From sequence record LR025195.1: 60,165 nucleotides of DNA. The stretch is one strand, 5' to 3'. A program made the translations under genes and the position numbers. The notes under the pieces are model-generated. The model did not search any database and was not told where the DNA came from. It saw nothing but the letters and a program-made list of their open reading frames with translations. Below, piece after piece: positions 16,385-32,856 of this stretch (the stretch's first letter is position 1; every line of letters starts with the position of its first letter). The stretch is from Escherichia phage vB_Eco_SLUR76.

Positions 16385-16511
16385 TAAGTTCTAACCCTGA
16401 TCAAAAATATTTTTAAAAATGTTTATGTAAGGGGTTGCGTGTCACAAAATCCTTTGGTACATTTAACCCCGTTGGTAACAAACGAACCCATAATAATTCG
16501 GAGTGAAGAAA

Positions 16512-17315
16512 ATGAGTAATATTGAAGATAAGAAAGCCGCTGCTGCCGCAGCCGCTGCTGCCGCTGCAAAATCTGCTAAGACTGCAAAGAAAGAAGCTAC
16601 TGCTAACGACGCAGAAGCTAAAAAAGCCGCTGCCGCTGAAGCTGCACGCGTAGCAAAAGAGAAAAAAGAAGCAGAGAAAAAAGCTGCCGCTGAAAAGAAA
16701 CAAGCTGAAATTCGTATTGAAGCGGAAAATAAATTTACCGCTCTTTCCCAGGCAGTTGAAACCGTGAAGTTTGCTTTATCCGGTATTACCGATGAAAGCA
16801 CTGTTGAACAGATTACGGAAGCAGAATCTAAGGGTTCCGAACAGCTGAAGCATTTAAAGAATGCTCTGAAAGAGCTGAAAGCAGTTGTTAAAAAATCCAA
16901 AGGTGAAGATCTGTCCGGTGCAGTAACTGCTGCTCAGAGCATGGTCGACGAACTGGATTCGTCTATCAAAGGCTTCAAAGACAAGATCCGCGCTGCTAAA
17001 CAGGCTGAAAAGGCTGCTGAAAAAGCCCGCGAAAAAGCTGAACGTGAAAAAGCGAAAGAAGCGAACCGTATGCCTGAACAGAATGGTGTTCGTCGTCCGC
17101 AACCGGAAACTTCCTGCGGTCGTGCCTGGGCTCTGATGGATCAGATTAGCGCTACGCTGGGTCAGCCTGCTCCGATCTCTTATGTTCTGAATCTGGCTGG
17201 TCGCCACGGTCTGAACGAAGATACTGTTAAAACTCAGTATGCGCGTTGGAAGAAGTTTAATGGTGTGACTGGTCGCGTACCTATGCCAGTACCGGAAGCC
17301 CTGAACGGCTTGTAA
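16512..17315 (+). CDS. Lys/Ala/Glu-rich histone-H1-like protein with structured C-terminal domain
   Basis: RBS ggag; the N-terminal 170 aa are low-complexity KAAAEKK repeats. Confidence 0.55.
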   Translation: MSNIEDKKAAAAAAAAAAAKSAKTAKKEATANDAEAKKAAAAEAARVAKEKKEAEKKAAAEKKQAEIRIEAENKFTALSQAVETVKFALSGITDESTVEQITEAESKGSEQLKHLKNALKELKAVVKKSKGEDLSGAVTAAQSMVDELDSSIKGFKDKIRAAKQAEKAAEKAREKAEREKAKEANRMPEQNGVRRPQPETSCGRAWALMDQISATLGQPAPISYVLNLAGRHGLNEDTVKTQYARWKKFNGVTGRVPMPVPEALNGL

Positions 17316-17340
17316 TATCAAAACATATCACGTTATAATG

Positions 17341-17369
17341 AAAGCGCCCAATGAGGCGCTTTCTTTTTC
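17341..17369 (+). terminator. Rho-independent terminator
   Basis: Hairpin aaagcgcc-caatga-ggcgcttt followed by ctttttc. Confidence 0.7.
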
Positions 17370-17384
17370 ACTAGAGGATTTAAG

Positions 17385-18092
17385 ATGAATATTAATCAAC
17401 AAGCTCCCGAGTCCCGTTCTAAAGAAAACGATATGTATTTAGACGTGCATTCGGTATTCTCTACCATTCAGGGTGAAGGTCCATTCTGCGGCCAACCTGC
17501 TGTATTTGTGCGTCTTGCTGGGTGTAATCTGCAATGCCCTGGCTGTGATACCGATTATACTGTTGGTCGTAGTCTTTATCATATTGTCGATATTATGCGT
17601 TTAATCGAAAGCCGTAAGCTGGAATCAGGTAATAGCACCTCACTTGTGGTTATCACTGGGGGTGAACCGTTCCGTCAGCAAATTAACCCGTTTATTGAAC
17701 AACTGTTATCGCGCGGCTATTTGGTGCAAATTGAAACTAATGGGTCTATGCCTTTACCTAAGAACTTTTCCCAGTTACCTATAATTGTATGTAGTCCCAA
17801 GACCTCAAAGATTCATCCTTCTGTGCTGCGCCGCGCTAATGCATTTAAATATGTACTTAAAGCGTGCTGTGTAAACGTGGAAGATGGTTTACCTCTTCAA
17901 GCATTAGATCATCAAGCTACGCCATTTATCGCTAGACCTCCGAAGGGTTTCAAGGGTAAGATATATTTACAGCCAATGGACGAGCAGGATGAAGACCTTA
18001 ACCACAGTAATATCCAAGCCGTTGTCCAAAGCTGTATGAAACACGGTTACACGTTGCAGCTTCAGGTTCACAAATATATCGGAGTGGAATAA
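17385..18092 (+). CDS. queE: 7-carboxy-7-deazaguanine synthase QueE (radical SAM)
   Basis: Radical-SAM cysteine motif CNLQCPGC and QGEGPF; QueE length. Confidence 0.8.
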   Translation: MNINQQAPESRSKENDMYLDVHSVFSTIQGEGPFCGQPAVFVRLAGCNLQCPGCDTDYTVGRSLYHIVDIMRLIESRKLESGNSTSLVVITGGEPFRQQINPFIEQLLSRGYLVQIETNGSMPLPKNFSQLPIIVCSPKTSKIHPSVLRRANAFKYVLKACCVNVEDGLPLQALDHQATPFIARPPKGFKGKIYLQPMDEQDEDLNHSNIQAVVQSCMKHGYTLQLQVHKYIGVE

Positions 18093-18346: not shown

Positions 18347-18559
18347 ATGATCACTTTGGAAGAAGCGAAACAGCATCAGGAAATGATCACTGAACTGGTA
18401 GAAAAACTTAATTCTTCAATTGCCCACGCTACTATGCAGGGCGTGCATGTAGAATTAGATATTAATTACGTTAGCACAATTGGAGCGCGCAATCACCCAA
18501 TTGTAATGTCTAACGTAACAATTAACCCTTGTGATATTAAAGGTGAAGTAAATGAATAA
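18347..18559 (+). CDS. Hypothetical protein (inside the deazaguanine island)
   Basis: Coupled ORF; overlaps the queC start. Confidence 0.5.
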   Translation: MITLEEAKQHQEMITELVEKLNSSIAHATMQGVHVELDINYVSTIGARNHPIVMSNVTINPCDIKGEVNE

Positions 18560-19259
18560 ATTAGATAAACTGGTATTCCCTGTAAAAAATCATAACTCCG
18601 CCGTTGTCGTCCTGTCTGGCGGCCAGGACAGCGTGACCTGTTTGGGTCTTGCACTTAATAACTATGATAAGGTCTACGCTATTGGTTTTGCATACGGTCA
18701 ACGTCATAACATTGAGCTGGCTTGTGCTAATCAAATTTGTAAAGAGCACGATGTCCCGTTTGTTGTCTTTGAATTACCTGCTTTGAAACAAATTGGCAAT
18801 AGCGCTTTAATCGGGAACGAAGGTGATGTTAACGAACATCACGAACAGCACAACAACCTTCCGGCAAGCTTTGTGCCCAACCGTAATGCTCTTTTCCTGA
18901 CTACCGCGCACGCCTACGCGCAGAAGGTTGGCGCGCGATATGTGGTTACGGGCGTCTGTGAAACGGACTATAGCGGTTATCCGGATTGCCGCCAGCAGTT
19001 TGTAGATTTGCTTGAAGCTACGTTAAACGTTGGATATGAAACAGATATCCATTTTGTTACTCCGCTTATGCGTTTAAACAAAGCGGAAACGTTTGAGCTG
19101 GCGGATAAGGTTGGTTTCTTAACCACAGTAATTGAGCAGTCCCATACGTGCTATAATGGCGTCCGTCGTACTCTGCATGACTGGGGATACGGTTGCGGGG
19201 AATGTCCAGCGTGTAAACTTCGTGCTAAAGGGTACAGCGAATTTATTAGCAAAGCTTGA
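18552..19259 (+). CDS. queC: 7-cyano-7-deazaguanine (preQ0) synthase QueC
   Basis: PP-loop SGGQDS and C-terminal zinc-binding cysteines CYNG...CGECPAC. Confidence 0.85.
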   Translation: MNKLDKLVFPVKNHNSAVVVLSGGQDSVTCLGLALNNYDKVYAIGFAYGQRHNIELACANQICKEHDVPFVVFELPALKQIGNSALIGNEGDVNEHHEQHNNLPASFVPNRNALFLTTAHAYAQKVGARYVVTGVCETDYSGYPDCRQQFVDLLEATLNVGYETDIHFVTPLMRLNKAETFELADKVGFLTTVIEQSHTCYNGVRRTLHDWGYGCGECPACKLRAKGYSEFISKA

Positions 19260-19379
19260 TCTTACCGCGAAAACCGCACCGCTAGCACATTGTTTAGGGT
19301 GCGGTAACCCAACTATACTACTAAAGATTTTAAACCCAACAACCAGCGAATAACGCTGTTAAAACTGGAGAACAAAAGT

Positions 19380-19859
19380 ATGAAATTTATCGTTGCTTAT
19401 CTGGCTGCAATTACATTCGTAAACCTGGGCTTTTCCTACCTTCCGATGCTTAATACGCCACTTGGCGTAGTCCCCATGATGGCTTTCTTTGTAGGCATTA
19501 TCTTTGTTCTGCGTGATTACGCACAGCGTAACGCTGGCAAAGGCGTCATCCCTGCAATGATTGTTGGTTGCATCCTTAGCTGGGTGTTCGGTAATCCTGC
19601 GGTTGTAGTTGCATCCGTTGCGTCTTTTGCGCTTAGTGAGTTTGCGGACTATGTAGTATACACGGTCACCAAGAAGCCTTTCCATCAACGAGTATTTATC
19701 AGCTCTTTGGTAGCTGTACCAATTGACTCCATTGTGTTCTTAAGTATTATAGGTATTGTTAATCCGGGATCGATGGTAGCAATGAGCTTAAGTAAGTTCA
19801 CAGCGTCTGCTATCCTTTGGGTTGTTTACGAAGTTCATTCACGTACAGCGAGAGCGTAA
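19380..19859 (+). CDS. Small polytopic membrane protein, YhhQ/DUF165-like queuosine-precursor transporter candidate
   Basis: Four or more predicted TM helices; VLRDYAQRNAGKG and FALSEFADYVVY resemble conserved YhhQ segments; sits within the que cluster. Confidence 0.4.
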   Translation: MKFIVAYLAAITFVNLGFSYLPMLNTPLGVVPMMAFFVGIIFVLRDYAQRNAGKGVIPAMIVGCILSWVFGNPAVVVASVASFALSEFADYVVYTVTKKPFHQRVFISSLVAVPIDSIVFLSIIGIVNPGSMVAMSLSKFTASAILWVVYEVHSRTARA

Positions 19860-19861
19860 AA

Positions 19862-20452
19862 ATGAAAGATAATTTGAATAAAATTTGGCACCAACACGAC
19901 GGTAAAGGAATGCCTATTTTTCTTCGTAATGAGAAGTTTGAAGTTCGTTTGCGCAACGGCACACACGTTAAGAATCTATTACATGGATGGGATTGGGCTA
20001 TGGAAGGGCGTTCAGCTATGGATGAAAATAGCCCTTATAAAGTTCAAGATATTATAGCCTGGCGCTATATCGTTGCGGATGATTACGTCAAACAGGCTAG
20101 CGAAAACACTCGCTCCGGATTGTACAATCAACCTTCTTCTGGAATAAGCATAAGTAATACATTTAATGGTGCGGTTTTTACGAAATACGAACCGTCTAAA
20201 ATTCCCATGAATAAATATCAGAAAGTTATTTATGGTAAAGATCAAAATGGGAATGTTGTAAAATGCATCGTGGACGTGTATGATGTCTTGGAAGCTTGGA
20301 AGACAACTAACCCAGCTTTACAACATTTGATTAAAAAGGCGTTGCAGCCTGGCGAACGCGGTCATAAGCATGTGGTAGAAGATTTGAAAGACATTATTGC
20401 GTCGGCGCAGCGTGCGTTAGAAATTGAACAGTCTAAAGAGGTATTAAAATGA
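19862..20452 (+). CDS. Hypothetical protein (inside the deazaguanine island)
   Basis: 197-aa ORF coupled between the transporter-like gene and queD; no recognisable motif. Confidence 0.55.
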   Translation: MKDNLNKIWHQHDGKGMPIFLRNEKFEVRLRNGTHVKNLLHGWDWAMEGRSAMDENSPYKVQDIIAWRYIVADDYVKQASENTRSGLYNQPSSGISISNTFNGAVFTKYEPSKIPMNKYQKVIYGKDQNGNVVKCIVDVYDVLEAWKTTNPALQHLIKKALQPGERGHKHVVEDLKDIIASAQRALEIEQSKEVLK

Positions 20453-20985
20453 GTTATACAGTAATTCGTTCACATGAAATTTGCGCTGGACATCGTGTTG
20501 TAGGGCATGAAAGCAAGTGTCGTCACCTTCACGGTCACAACTATAAGTTTCACTTTAAGGTTGCGCCGAAAGAAACAGTTAAAGAAGTACCAATTGAAAT
20601 GGGCGGAGGTCTTGTCAACGTCGAAGTAAAAGAGCGCGCTAAGCTGGACCATGTGGGCCGAGTTATCGACTTTAGTGTGGTTAAAACTACGCTCTGCCAG
20701 TGGCTGGAAGATAATTGGGATCATAAGTTCCTGCATTGGAATCGTGATAATTTGATTGACGCTTTGAAAATTGCAGCAAGTCGCCCGAGTTGTCCTCTGG
20801 AACATGAAGACCATGAGCATTTCTTAAGCTCATTGGTAGCTTTACCATTCAACCCAACTGCGGAAAACTTAGCTGCATATATGGTTGACGTGATTGGTCC
20901 GCAACTGCTTGACGAACATGGTGTTCAACTTGTAGAATGCACCATCGAAGAAACTTCGAAATGTCACGTAAACTATAGCCTGTAA
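20449..20985 (+). CDS. queD: 6-carboxy-5,6,7,8-tetrahydropterin synthase QueD
   Basis: QueD/PTPS motifs CAGHR and HGHNY; ATGA start-stop overlap. Confidence 0.85.
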
Positions 20986-20986
20986 T

Positions 20987-21625
20987 ATGACCACATTAAC
21001 AAGGAAACTGCAAACCATGCCAAAATTTACTATTGATAACGAAGGTACTCAATTCCGTATTGCTCGCGCGGTGCATACTTTACTAACTCAGATTGAAGAT
21101 TGCATTGAATTACGTCCAGGATTAGCAGAGACTCCAGACCGTGTCGCTAAAGCTTATGCTACATGGTTTAGCGGTTACGATGTAGATATCGCTGGTCTGT
21201 TTAAAACCTTTGAGGATGGGGCGGAAAACACCAATGAAATGGTCATTGTCCGTGATATCCCTGTATATAGTCATTGTGAGCATCACATGGCTCCTATCAT
21301 CGGTCATGCTGTCGTGGGTTATGTCCCCAATGGGAAGATCGTTGGGCTTAGTAAGCTGTCTCGCGTTGTGGATGCTTTTAGTCGTCGACTGCAAGTTCAG
21401 GAACGTCTTACTAACCAGATTGCAGACGCTATTCAGGAGCATTTAAACCCGAAAGCTGTATGTGTTTATATTGACGCCAAGCATATGTGCATGGAGTCAC
21501 GCGGTGTTAAGCAGGTATGCGGCAGCTCTACTATTACTAAAGCATTCCGTGGGGCTACCGCTAACCGTGGAGATGGAACAATTGGTGCTGTTTGGCGCCG
21601 GGAGTTCCTTGAAGCTTGTAAATAA
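20987..21625 (+). CDS. folE: GTP cyclohydrolase I FolE
   Basis: FolE signature SHCEHH, GLSKLSR and RLQVQERLT. Confidence 0.9.
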
Positions 21626-21696: not shown

Positions 21697-21903
21697 ATGT
21701 CAAGACAATTAATTTTAGAAGCTGCATTCTACAAGCTTAAAGCAGGTACTGCGGATGCTTGCTCTGCAATACAGAATGATGCGCCTACAAATGTCTTAAA
21801 GCAGCAGCTTATTAACGCTAAACATCAAGCGGACGAAGCATTTAATAATGCATGGCGCACCTTAGAACTAATTGATCAGTTTGGAGGACCATTCCAAAAA
21901 TGA
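21697..21903 (+). CDS. Hypothetical protein
   Basis: ATG after RBS gggggaaat; the upstream ATG of the track ORF lies inside the terminator hairpin. Confidence 0.45.
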   Translation: MSRQLILEAAFYKLKAGTADACSAIQNDAPTNVLKQQLINAKHQADEAFNNAWRTLELIDQFGGPFQK

Positions 21904-22820
21904 ACGTTTTTATGGCAGCAGTTTACACAAACGGATATATGCCTGGCCAGCAGCGTTATGAAAAGCTGTCTGAGCATGAGAAAAATATCACGCGCAATCT
22001 GCCCCATATTTTGGAATCATACCACTACGTTGGACGTCAAAAGTATGTTGATCAGATGCGTGCGGACGGGGCTAAAGTGTTTCTCGACTCCGGTGCATTC
22101 TCCGCGCACTCTTTGGGTGCTCACATTGATATTGTCGAATACTGCGAATACATTAAGCGCAACAAAGACATCCTTCGCGTAGAAGATGGCGCAGTAATGG
22201 CGTCAGTGCTCGATGGCATCGGTGATCCGTTGCAAACCTACCGTAACCAGCTTGAAATGGAAGCACGCGGAGCTAAACCGTTACCTTGCTTTCACTTTGG
22301 TGAAGACTTCCGCTATCTTGAATACTACATGAAGAACTACGAATATATCACCATTGGAGGCATGGTAGGGCGTTCCACAGACACGCTTAAAACTTGGCTT
22401 GACCGCATGTGGGACAAATATATTTGCGATGGTAGCGGACGTGCTAAGATTAAGCTTCATGCGTTTGGTATTACGTCAACAACCATTATGGAGCGTTATC
22501 CGTGGTATAGCTGTGACTCATCCTCCTGGATTCAAGCGGCAGCGTTTGGAAGTGTGGTTACCCCTCCGTGGGGACCAATGCGCGTATCAGATAAGTCACC
22601 GGACCGCCATCATTTTGGTAAGCATGTTTCAACATTAACTGAAATTGAACAAGACGCTGTCCTTAAATACCTTGAGCAAAACGGTTTCACTTACGAACGT
22701 TTATCAACAATCTATGAATCACGTGCTGCCTTCAACTTATGGGCGTATGGTGTAATTGCTGCAAACATTAACGCCACCCATGACGGCACATTCCGTGATC
22801 GTGTGATGGAGTTGTTCTGA
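21900..22820 (+). CDS. dpdA: DpdA-like 7-deazaguanine DNA transglycosylase (tRNA-guanine transglycosylase superfamily)
   Basis: TGT-like motif FLDSGAF; located immediately downstream of folE, queD, queC and queE. Confidence 0.6.
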   Translation: MNVFMAAVYTNGYMPGQQRYEKLSEHEKNITRNLPHILESYHYVGRQKYVDQMRADGAKVFLDSGAFSAHSLGAHIDIVEYCEYIKRNKDILRVEDGAVMASVLDGIGDPLQTYRNQLEMEARGAKPLPCFHFGEDFRYLEYYMKNYEYITIGGMVGRSTDTLKTWLDRMWDKYICDGSGRAKIKLHAFGITSTTIMERYPWYSCDSSSWIQAAAFGSVVTPPWGPMRVSDKSPDRHHFGKHVSTLTEIEQDAVLKYLEQNGFTYERLSTIYESRAAFNLWAYGVIAANINATHDGTFRDRVMELF

Positions 22821-29955: not shown

Positions 29956-32856
29956 TTATGGTAGTGATTCTTTATTAACAAGCGTCGCAACTAACTTTTT
30001 GAGTTCCTCAACTTCAGTTTCAAGTTTTGTAATGCGGTCATCTGCTTCACGACAAACCTGAACCAGAAGACCGGTTACCGCGGAGTAGTCGACGCTAAGG
30101 TAACGTTTACCAAAATCCAAGGTTATATCATTACCTTCTACGTCCTGACCATCCATATATTCATGCTTTGTGAAACTGCTAACAGCTTCAGGTAGTGCTT
30201 CCATAACTTCCTGAGCAATTACACCAGCATAAGGTAGACCGTTCTCCTTAAGTGTATATGTATAACCATTCATTTTCCGAATTGCTTCAGTAGCTGAACT
30301 TATTACCTGTATGTTATCTTTTAAGTCTCTATCGGATGACTGATTAACTGTAACACAGTTAACAGCACCATTTACTTGAAGTTGTAGGCTGTTATCCGGA
30401 TTCTGTTGACCATAAAAAATCCAAGTATCCGATGCATCCGTGTCGGGGTTTTTTACTTTACATTCAATAACTGTCGGTCTATCGGAGTTACCCCAAGTAT
30501 ACAGTTCAATATTCTTAGCAGAATTTCCGCCAGTTAATATGCGCGTAATTCTACCACCATTAACCACAGATAAATTATTTGTTAATAATCTATTGTTAAA
30601 TGTATTTGGCTGTGTCCATATATTTTCAATATCCAAAGCTGCTAACTGATGCCAGGGTGAATCAGTTTTCGATGCTTGTGGATTATCGGAGAGTAGGAAA
30701 CGGTAGTACATTTTACCATCCGCACCAATCCACGCTTGACCAATCCTTGATGTAGCATAGCATGATTGGAACCCTGCCCCATATGTAGGAACCCATGAAG
30801 GATTTGTTGATCCATCGCTAATAAAGCAATCGCGACCGTCCAGAGGTGTATTGGCTCCAAAAGATGAAGTAAGTAGCTTCAACCATTCGCCATTTGTACT
30901 AGCTTCGATTGTTCTAATAAAAGCATTGTTCCTACGACCTGCTATTTGAAATGCGTAGTTTCCGCTAAAACCTACATGTACACCACCATAAACAACATTT
31001 GTAGAATGTTCAGGACCGTTAACGCCTCCAGCAATCCCGTAGAATTTATTCACGGTATTGATTTGACCGTTCCAATCGGATCCAGTTGCTGATAACAATC
31101 CATTTGGGGAACTAAATGTTCCATCCAGATTAAAGTTAAAAAATTGATGTCTGGCAGCAGATGACATATCACGCACAACAATCTGTCCATTGCTATCTCC
31201 TGCGCGAAGTTCTGTCTGATCCAATGTTATATTTTTTTCAGCATTTGTTCTTCTGCTTATAAAAGATCTACCTTCAGTAGAATCGCTATACCCTATAAAT
31301 CCCTGTGTTGCTTGTATTTTTCCAAGTAATGTGAAACTAGGAATTGACGCAATAAAAGAATCACCTGTAGACAGATTATTTGTTAGTGCAAAGTTTTGTG
31401 AACTTCCTTGTCTAAATGGAGAATTGCTATAGAATCCACTACCACCACCTTCAAAGTTAAGGATGTTTGTAACGTTATTCTCCGTGTCACCTTCAGTTGG
31501 AGCGGACACTCCAAACTTAAAACGAACACCATTAGTACCTAAAACATAGTCTTCAATTGGTACTATGACATTTGCCTTGTAACCAACTTGAATCCTAATT
31601 GGAAAAGCTTTTTTGTGGATATAAAAAGCTATATGATTGCTATAATCCTTTTTAGAACCTTTGACGCAAAGTATTCCAACTTCTTTTGGATCATAAGTTG
31701 CTAGATAACCAAAAGCAGCATCTTTCAAATCTGACCAACCGCCACAACGAATGTATCCAAAGAACGAACTATTATTCATCGGATCGTTTGCTGGTGCACT
31801 TTTAGTGACAATATCAACAGGGCATAGCATGTTCCCATACCCGTTCATATTACCTGTATAGATTATAATAGGATAATATTTTTCATCCTCTGACCCTTCC
31901 GGGGCGTTGATGGTTATGATGTTTGACAAACCACCTTCCGGGATTTGGAGATTGGTCTTAGCGTCTGCTATTGTTAAAGCTCCAGTCCCACCTCTATTGA
32001 CAGGTAAAGGAAGATATCTACTACCAGAGACGTCAAATGCGCCCCAACTTATATTATTTTCAACTATAATTTTTGCATTACGATTTGGAGAGTATAAAGC
32101 TGTCTCTGTGCTTGCTTGCGCTAATCTGTCTACTTGACTATAAAGAACACCTTTCCACCATACAGTTCCAGTTTGAGCGGTCCATTTGTAGCTATAAACA
32201 GTTCCTGTCACATCACCTATAAACAAGCCAATAAAGCCCGGGCTTCCGTCCATAGGGGAAATAAAGCCACCTAGAACGTTATCACTATTAGCAATGCCCG
32301 GATACCCGACGGTTGAACTTCTAAGTATTCTTAAAAAACCCAGGAAGCTAGAAGGATTAACAGTAATATCTGCGACATGTCTTGCGCTGCTAGTTAAGCC
32401 GATAGATGCCTTCATGCCATTAGCGGTGTCTTCTGCCTTTTTAGCAGCAGCTTCTGCTTTAACTCTCTCCTGCTCGGATTTAGTAGCAGAAGTAGATGAA
32501 GCGTTCTTAGCTGTTTCGGCTTGTGAAACTAAATCTCTAACCTGTGCAATAACTTCCGGAGTTAATTCTTCCGGGGCCCATGTGGTTAAATAGTTATTCA
32601 GCGTACCTTCTTTACTGTCCGCGTAAATAGCAATTTCACCAGCTTTATAAGGCTCGCTACCTTGAGGCCCAATAATAACCTTGTAATAGCCTGTCTGGAC
32701 GGTGATGTCATAAGTTCCGGTTGCACTTGTTTTAAAGATAGCTTCGCTGCTGGATAATACGGTAAGACTGTTTCCTTTAGCTAAAAGCGCAACTGTAGCG
32801 TTGATAATTGGTTTGCCCAGTCCATCACGCAAAGTACCATATAAACGAGTTGCCAT
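29956..32856 (-). CDS. Long tail fiber protein with C-terminal S74-type intramolecular chaperone domain
   Basis: 966 aa; C-terminus SDRDLKDNI...GVIAQEV...LSVDYSAVTGLL matches the autoproteolytic chaperone domain of tail fibers; RBS gggaga. Confidence 0.8.
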   Translation of the reverse strand: MATRLYGTLRDGLGKPIINATVALLAKGNSLTVLSSSEAIFKTSATGTYDITVQTGYYKVIIGPQGSEPYKAGEIAIYADSKEGTLNNYLTTWAPEELTPEVIAQVRDLVSQAETAKNASSTSATKSEQERVKAEAAAKKAEDTANGMKASIGLTSSARHVADITVNPSSFLGFLRILRSSTVGYPGIANSDNVLGGFISPMDGSPGFIGLFIGDVTGTVYSYKWTAQTGTVWWKGVLYSQVDRLAQASTETALYSPNRNAKIIVENNISWGAFDVSGSRYLPLPVNRGGTGALTIADAKTNLQIPEGGLSNIITINAPEGSEDEKYYPIIIYTGNMNGYGNMLCPVDIVTKSAPANDPMNNSSFFGYIRCGGWSDLKDAAFGYLATYDPKEVGILCVKGSKKDYSNHIAFYIHKKAFPIRIQVGYKANVIVPIEDYVLGTNGVRFKFGVSAPTEGDTENNVTNILNFEGGGSGFYSNSPFRQGSSQNFALTNNLSTGDSFIASIPSFTLLGKIQATQGFIGYSDSTEGRSFISRRTNAEKNITLDQTELRAGDSNGQIVVRDMSSAARHQFFNFNLDGTFSSPNGLLSATGSDWNGQINTVNKFYGIAGGVNGPEHSTNVVYGGVHVGFSGNYAFQIAGRRNNAFIRTIEASTNGEWLKLLTSSFGANTPLDGRDCFISDGSTNPSWVPTYGAGFQSCYATSRIGQAWIGADGKMYYRFLLSDNPQASKTDSPWHQLAALDIENIWTQPNTFNNRLLTNNLSVVNGGRITRILTGGNSAKNIELYTWGNSDRPTVIECKVKNPDTDASDTWIFYGQQNPDNSLQLQVNGAVNCVTVNQSSDRDLKDNIQVISSATEAIRKMNGYTYTLKENGLPYAGVIAQEVMEALPEAVSSFTKHEYMDGQDVEGNDITLDFGKRYLSVDYSAVTGLLVQVCREADDRITKLETEVEELKKLVATLVNKESLP

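Follow-up and report, generated by a model that had tools for sequence, protein, structure and literature searches.

Why should a phage that can make its own preQ0 also carry a gene that looks suited to importing it? In Escherichia phage vB_Eco_SLUR76 (LR025195.1; the whole stretch of 60,165 nucleotides is referred to here as the window), a 159-codon reading frame lies inside a que cluster, and the original prediction was that it encodes a phage-carried miniature of the queuosine-precursor transporter YhhQ, feeding DNA modification. The setting was borne out, as the frame at 19380-19859 is flanked by queC and by queD, folE and dpdA. The features of the locus are as follows.

17385-18092, plus strand: queE, 7-carboxy-7-deazaguanine synthase (NCBIfam QueE models, E 1e-27 to 1e-28, with scores under the curated cut-offs of those models; phrog_2076, E 1.3e-68)
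18552-19259, plus strand: queC, preQ0 synthase, without a Gat domain (Pfam QueC, E 9.2e-75; TIGR00364, 243 bits, over the cut-off)
19260-19379, plus strand: intergenic spacer of 120 bp separating queC from the transporter gene; a stable hairpin lies at about 19273-19305
19367-19370, plus strand: GGAG, a Shine-Dalgarno-like motif 9 nt before the transporter ATG, read from the sequence
19380-19859, plus strand: gene for a short-form VUT/DUF165 (YhhQ-type) membrane protein, an ORF of 159 codons from ATG to TAA
19862-20452, plus strand: gene for a 196-aa protein, homologue of CAjan gp40 (phrog_23361, function unknown, E 4.9e-100)
20449-20985, plus strand: queD, 6-carboxytetrahydropterin synthase (Pfam PTPS, E 3.9e-22; phrog_2389, E 2.8e-54)
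20987-21625, plus strand: folE, GTP cyclohydrolase I (Pfam GTP_cyclohydroI, E 1.7e-63)
21900-22820, plus strand: dpdA, DNA guanine transglycosylase (phrog_887, E 8.2e-96)

The order of genes is queE, two small ORFs, queC, the transporter ORF, the 196-aa protein gene, queD, folE, a small ORF and dpdA, and queE belongs to the preQ0 pathway encoded by the phage itself. The que region, 5.4 kb long, shows 100% identity to Escherichia phage vB_Eco_SLUR26 (LR025198.1; Queuovirinae, Seuratvirus), and DpdA is 99-100% identical to DpdA in other Seuratvirus phages. LR025198.1 labels the transporter gene 'hypothetical protein', a label that can now be replaced. The gene for the 196-aa protein begins 2 nt past the transporter stop codon. 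A Pfam scan of this protein found no family, and its C-terminal 90 or so residues also match several further PHROG families, one bearing the label 'ATPase' and the rest without an assigned function. QueD, at 178 aa, is matched by the 121-position Pfam PTPS model in two stretches, which suggests an insertion of about 50 residues compared with a typical QueD. The GenBank-annotated start of folE is 30 nt further in than the ORF start. Between the gene for an alanine-rich protein (16503-17315) and queE, positions 17310-17363 hold a promoter-like TTGTAA-18-TATAAT and, right behind it, a hairpin and T-run resembling a terminator; the counts of promoter-like and terminator-like sites in the region are not above those in shuffled sequence.

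Neither the gene nor its proposed role is new. Kot et al. 2020 (PMC7544227) named the gene yhhQ in phage CAjan and called it a 'putative preQ0 transporter', and Morozova et al. 2021 (PMC8310023) reported an orthologue in EC151 as well as relatives in Seuratvirus and Vibrio phages. A preQ0-transporter role is the accepted, published annotation for CAjan, EC151 and the BASEL Seuratviruses. CAjan gp41 (YP_009196835.1) shares 158 of 159 residues with the phage protein, the one difference being N72D, and has the same position in the same cluster of 12 genes, with queC on one side and the gp40 homologue on the other. For practical purposes the phage protein is CAjan gp41. The wider analysis adds a predicted complete S-component fold, a large phage and bacterial clade whose bacterial genes lie by queF and queC, and an operon-like pair with dpdA, away from synthesis genes, in most of the viral contigs sampled.

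The likeness to the YhhQ/DUF165 family had been noticed in two segments, VLRDYAQRNAGKG (residues 43-55) and FALSEFADYVVY (residues 83-94). Both are present, and the resemblance goes beyond chance. The Pfam model Vut_1 (PF02592, formerly DUF165) matches residues 66-145 with an E-value of 9.3e-6 and 26.5 bits, 0.7 bit under the gathering score of 27.2 bits. The NCBIfam model TIGR00697 (queuosine precursor transporter) matches residues 69-128 only, with an E-value of 6.6e-5 and 22.8 bits against an equivalog cut-off of 50.95. NF008406, the model for enterobacterial YhhQ as a preQ0/preQ1 transporter (cut-off 252 bits), gives no match to the phage protein at E<=0.1, while E. coli YhhQ scores 391.8 bits on it. 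As the protein lies under the cut-offs of all three models, curated thresholds do not establish functional equivalence to YhhQ. PHROGs assigns it to phrog_4899, function unknown.

Direct comparison with E. coli YhhQ (221 aa, from NC_000913) is weak. BLASTP is not significant (E 1.3), and hhalign of the family against YhhQ alone or 120 enterobacterial YhhQ sequences gives E-values of 0.013-0.04 and probabilities of 1-3%, because the aligned sequences on the YhhQ side are nearly uniform. The case for homology is therefore built on the Pfam and TIGR profiles together with intermediates. From 5.8 billion proteins searched, 108 homologues were recovered. They are mostly 150-190 aa long, and PF02592 had been precomputed for many of them, including one that is 97% identical to the phage protein (P0001). 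From these homologues 48 family members were chosen for alignment A1. Vut_1 matches all 48 at E<0.01 (best 4.7e-8), and any other family matches at most a single member. Several proteins of the clade, P0111, P0112 and P0178 among them, reach 32-35 bits on Vut_1, over the gathering score. Intermediates of about 190 aa match the A1 profile at E-values around 1e-25 (about 77 bits) and TIGR00697 at 1e-9 to 6e-6 (26-38 bits, also under its cut-off). Membership is thus seen directly at the superfamily level, and we regard it as almost certain that the phage protein belongs to the VUT family.

With the A1 profile, 1.84 billion representative proteins yielded 1,292 clusters (50% identity) at E<=0.001 and 95 at E<=1e-30, and the best 150 matches were mostly 150-190 aa long. 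The short form is thus a large clade and not the oddity of one phage. It is common to phages and bacteria and is also chromosomal. The description of the gene as phage-carried is therefore right for this copy, which sits in a phage que cluster, but the clade is not phage-specific. The short VUT domain is apparently fused to other domains in P0112, P0115, P0222 and P0139 from the representative library, the apparent partners being an HD-type dNMP phosphatase (phrog_318, E 7.6e-59), a nucleoside 2-deoxyribosyltransferase domain and an unknown domain (phrog_17812). The phosphatase is the extra domain in the long relatives P0112 and P0115; read-through fusion of these two with a downstream gp40-like gene was checked and ruled out.

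The prediction that the protein is polytopic agrees with its hydropathy, which has six hydrophobic stretches, and with the helices of its AlphaFold model (pLDDT 80.9, pTM 0.68). The model has helices at 2-20, 33-70 (TM2 and TM3 continuous), 73-97, 101-124 and 129-158, and a beta-hairpin at 23-32, giving this predicted topology (residues of the phage protein).

About 2-20: TM1
23-32: periplasmic beta-hairpin
About 33-50: TM2
About 55-70: TM3
73-97: TM4
101-124: TM5
129-158: TM6

Lysines and arginines are confined to the two termini and the TM2-3 and TM4-5 loops, except for the conserved K139 in TM6. This distribution fits the positive-inside rule and a topology with both termini inside, and agrees with experiments, cited by Zallot 2017 (PMC5372724), that put the C-terminus of YhhQ in the cytoplasm. 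A control AlphaFold model of YhhQ (pLDDT 79.4) has helices at 6-30, 45-63, 65-89, 99-103 (short), 106-133, 141-163 and 169-219 and a hairpin at 34-43. The two models share the same order of elements, the TM1-TM2 hairpin included, and the same PDB matches. The best structural matches of the phage model are the S components RibU, BtuM, FolT, ThiT, BioY and others; searching PDB sequences with either the phage protein or YhhQ gave no relative of solved structure. An S component is the substrate-binding membrane subunit of an energy-coupling-factor (ECF) transporter. The model thus describes the phage protein as a complete six-helix fold like that of an ECF S component, in agreement with the placing of COG1738 in the VUT/ECF family by TCDB (PMC5372724).

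Conserved residues follow the same lines. Alignment A2 holds 47 sequences (10 YhhQ-type, 18 intermediate and 19 short-form, the YhhQ-type branch being shallow), and in it the phage protein aligns with YhhQ end to end. Six columns are invariant in all 47 sequences, phage N15, D46, S79, D90, S109 and D116, equivalent to YhhQ N28, D57, S115, D126, S146 and D154. Phage R50, G53 and S67 (YhhQ R61, G64 and S83) are near-invariant. The phage protein and E. coli YhhQ (P37619; NF008406; COG1738/QPTR), a preQ0/preQ1 importer with experimental support, thus share a Pfam family, six TM helices, the hairpin and the invariant N/D/S/D/S/D pattern at about 20% identity, while the phage protein lacks the N-terminal extension and the 20-aa TM3-TM4 insert and has a shorter tail. 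YhhQ has 62 residues more, made up of about 13 at the N-terminus, the insert at 88-107, a few in loops and those of a longer TM6 and C-terminal tail. The description of the protein as about two-thirds of the usual length is fair against YhhQ (159 versus 221 aa, or 72%) and less striking against the 152-position Pfam model or S components of 155-190 aa. 'Miniature' likewise suits a protein 62 residues shorter than YhhQ but should not suggest truncation, as the models have shorter loops and tails with all six helices and the hairpin kept.

A protein shorter than E. coli YhhQ that scores just under the Pfam threshold might be a decaying, non-functional remnant of a captured yhhQ. Compared with a relative of 93.8% nucleotide identity, the gene has 25 synonymous and 5 non-synonymous differences (pN/pS 0.063), so it is under strong purifying selection, and the protein is 97-100% identical among Seuratvirus isolates. 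Selection and the complete predicted fold effectively refute decay, and the size of the clade, with its 1,292 clusters and the mostly short best 150 matches, also speaks against it. We consider a remnant extremely improbable.

If the protein is functional and resembles an S component, does it need the rest of an ECF transporter? A Pfam scan of the ten cluster proteins found no ABC ATPase and no EcfT. E. coli K-12 has been reported to be without ECF core components, and YhhQ, which has six TM helices and is needed for preQ0 uptake, has been argued to act without an ECF module (Zallot 2017, PMC5372724). The solitary ECF-type S components BtuM, BioY and RibU have other substrates and no detectable sequence similarity to the phage protein (7-14% identity). 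The short-form protein most likely needs no ECF ATPase module and imports a free 7-deazaguanine base with high affinity by itself.

The neighbours of the gene in bacteria bear on which base this might be. When bacterial genomes were scanned, one per species, a relative was encoded in 287 stretches, of which the best 80 came mainly from Desulfovibrionaceae and from Rhodospirillales and other Alphaproteobacteria. Of these 80 loci, 24 had queF in the flank, and at 14 of these it was no more than 500 bp away. Leaving aside two contigs that are probably of phage origin, queC was adjacent in 10 (L111, L114, L123, L132, L149 and L150 are examples linked to queF or queC). In Alphaproteobacteria the arrangement is queC, VUT, queF in order. 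On a Desulfovibrionaceae contig (L176, 3318-4481) the short-form gene is divergent from queF, and prfA, rpmE, thyX and cdaA also adjoin, a cellular and not a prophage setting. The dpdA gene was absent from the 80 loci except on these two contigs, which also had que genes of phage type and probably represent phage DNA that was binned with the bacterial genomes. The short form is thus a gene of cellular queuosine salvage, not of phages alone. QueF reduces preQ0, and its pairing with the transporter gene points to preQ0 as the cargo.

A VUT-family importer of some other cargo, whether preQ1, queuine, CDG, another 7-deazaguanine derivative or nucleobases and nucleosides in general, is unlikely. 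In its favour, the phage protein falls under the equivalog thresholds of the preQ0/preQ1 transporter models, subfamilies of COG1738 with differing specificities have been proposed (Zallot 2017, PMC5372724), and the apparent fusions of relatives to a dNMP phosphatase or a nucleoside deoxyribosyltransferase could hint at broader nucleobase or nucleoside uptake. Set against this, CAjan DpdA inserts preQ0 (PMC7544227), dpdA is the commonest partner of the gene, and a place beside queF would be pointless for a protein importing preQ1 or queuine. The cargo is most probably preQ0.

The partnership with dpdA shows in viral contigs. A scan of IMG/VR with A1 gave 80 loci, 69 of them with a DpdA homologue within a flank of up to 10 kb and 52 with dpdA immediately downstream on the same strand. 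These uncultivated viral contigs are not independent: they form 42 clusters at 90% identity, 22 of which have adjacent dpdA, and 19 clusters at 70% identity, with dpdA adjacent in 5 and in the flank in 14. The pairs (L016-L095; for example L010, 8001-9214, and L008, 8001-9091) are operon-like, with stop and start codons often overlapping, and use three types of DpdA, the type found in the window, a short phrog_887 type and the phrog_15826 type of Arthrobacter phage Aoka (types confirmed on examples with PHROGs and BLASTP). Of the loci with dpdA immediately downstream, 15 extend for 5 kb or more in both directions, and none of these had preQ0-synthesis genes in the flank.

Among GenBank phages, 75 records encode a relative, comprising Seuratvirus and its allies, 19 Vibrio phages, 14 Rhizobium phages and singletons. 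In Aoka the transporter (gp38) is followed by a 109-aa protein (gp39) and a DpdA-like gene (gp40), and in Vibrio phage K392 the transporter gene and dpdA abut. A tblastn search of both complete genomes found the transporter and dpdA and detected no queC, queD, queE, folE or queF. Aoka gp39 (L006, 5486-5812) has a partial match to phrog_5949, 'GTP cyclohydrolase' (E 7.7e-9), and may be a small T-fold enzyme for the imported base. The transporter and DpdA sets in GenBank were compared by genus-level counts; organism names beginning 'Enterobacteria', the label of phage 9g, account for none of the 75 transporter records yet 8 of those with DpdA. Roseobacter phage CRP-701 (29 kb; L014, 3884-4399) has a VUT-family gene between those for an ssDNA-binding protein and a primase/helicase, with no dpdA annotated within the 7.6 kb examined, and is a possible exception to the linkage.

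Hutinet et al. 2019 (PMC6884629) reported YhhQ homologues in some phages without correlation to any phage group, and the phage survey of Hutinet 2023 mentions no transporter. The tight pairing of transporter and dpdA is absent from these two key surveys. In bacteria, yhhQ genes have been described within dpd clusters (Hutinet 2017, PMC5699537). The linkage observed here to dpdA, queF and queC, across unrelated phages and bacteria, supports a role in handling 7-deazaguanines.

The only experiment made with a member of this clade was a deletion in CAjan, whose DNA carries dPreQ0 in GA and GGC motifs and requires DpdA for it (PMC7544227). Deleting folE, queC or dpdA abolished the modification signal, while the yhhQ deletion mutant, in rich medium, had a nanopore dPreQ0 modification profile like that of the wild type (PMC7544227). 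This result counts against import. So does the setting, as the benefit of importing preQ0 is hard to see for a phage that makes its own in a host that has YhhQ. Table 1 of Kot 2020 places 'delta-yhhQ' at 31,850 in a mutant genome of 59,120 bp, which corresponds to 550 bp lost. In the CAjan RefSeq record (NC_028776) yhhQ lies at 32,084-32,563 and gp40 at 31,513-32,082, both on the minus strand. A deletion of 31,850-32,399 (L001), equivalent to about 19540-20090 in the window, would take in the C-terminal 105 or so codons of yhhQ and the N-terminal 78 or so of gp40, so the published mutant may be a double knock-out. The positions given for the other three mutants lie inside the named genes.

The lack of a modification phenotype and the apparent redundancy with host YhhQ and the phage pathway would also fit a membrane protein re-purposed for something other than import, such as export or retention of intermediates, superinfection exclusion or lysis timing. 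We think this improbable. The polar residues invariant across the family are kept within the membrane, the short form occurs in a housekeeping context in bacteria, and phages that pair the gene with dpdA alone have no synthesis pathway from which to export.

Both computational checks proposed with the original prediction, a DUF165/VUT profile search and topology prediction, favoured it, and the interpretation is supported. On balance, the family, the fold and the gene neighbourhoods make it reasonably probable that the phage protein imports preQ0; we infer the direction of transport, the substrate and the operation without an ECF module. On this explanation the protein would enter the inner membrane during infection and bind a free 7-deazaguanine base on the periplasmic side, in a pocket that may be lined by the conserved polar residues N15, E87, D90, D116 and K139. 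As a solitary S-component-type carrier it would then bring the base into the cytoplasm. [quoted passage not shown] In Seuratviruses, import would be a back-up to de novo synthesis, dispensable in rich medium. In phages with only the transporter and dpdA, import may be the sole phage-encoded means of obtaining the base.

A broader proposal, which we put forward tentatively as one that may or may not hold, is that the short-form VUT proteins make up a distinct clade of minimal, solitary preQ0 importers of the S-component type. Together with dpdA, such an importer would form a two-gene module for salvage and insertion in many uncultivated and some cultured phages without preQ0-synthesis genes. 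Hypermodification in these phages, and hence evasion of restriction, would depend on base brought in from outside the cell and not just on de novo synthesis, and the Seuratvirus copy would be a back-up of the same device. If preQ0 import is correct, the members of the clade would be the smallest queuosine-precursor transporters known and could serve structural and biochemical studies, and the anti-restriction DNA modification of some phages is predicted to need salvaged preQ0.

The spacer in front of the transporter gene is a separate matter. QueT and QrtT, predicted preQ1 ECF S components, are also predicted to take up queuosine precursors and are also linked to que genes, but they belong to a different family and often lie behind preQ1 riboswitches, with none at the phage gene. 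A preQ1 riboswitch 5' of the transporter gene was rejected after an Rfam scan of 19150-19480 (E<=10), in which the sole match was a chance-level RAGATH-26 on the opposite strand. An intrinsic terminator with a T-run and a sigma-70 promoter were looked for in the 120 bp, and neither was found. The hairpin at about 19273-19305 has a predicted RNA folding energy of -26 kcal/mol (z -2.27), and the spacer is better conserved than the ORF, with 97.5% against 93.8% identity to a slur01-like contig.
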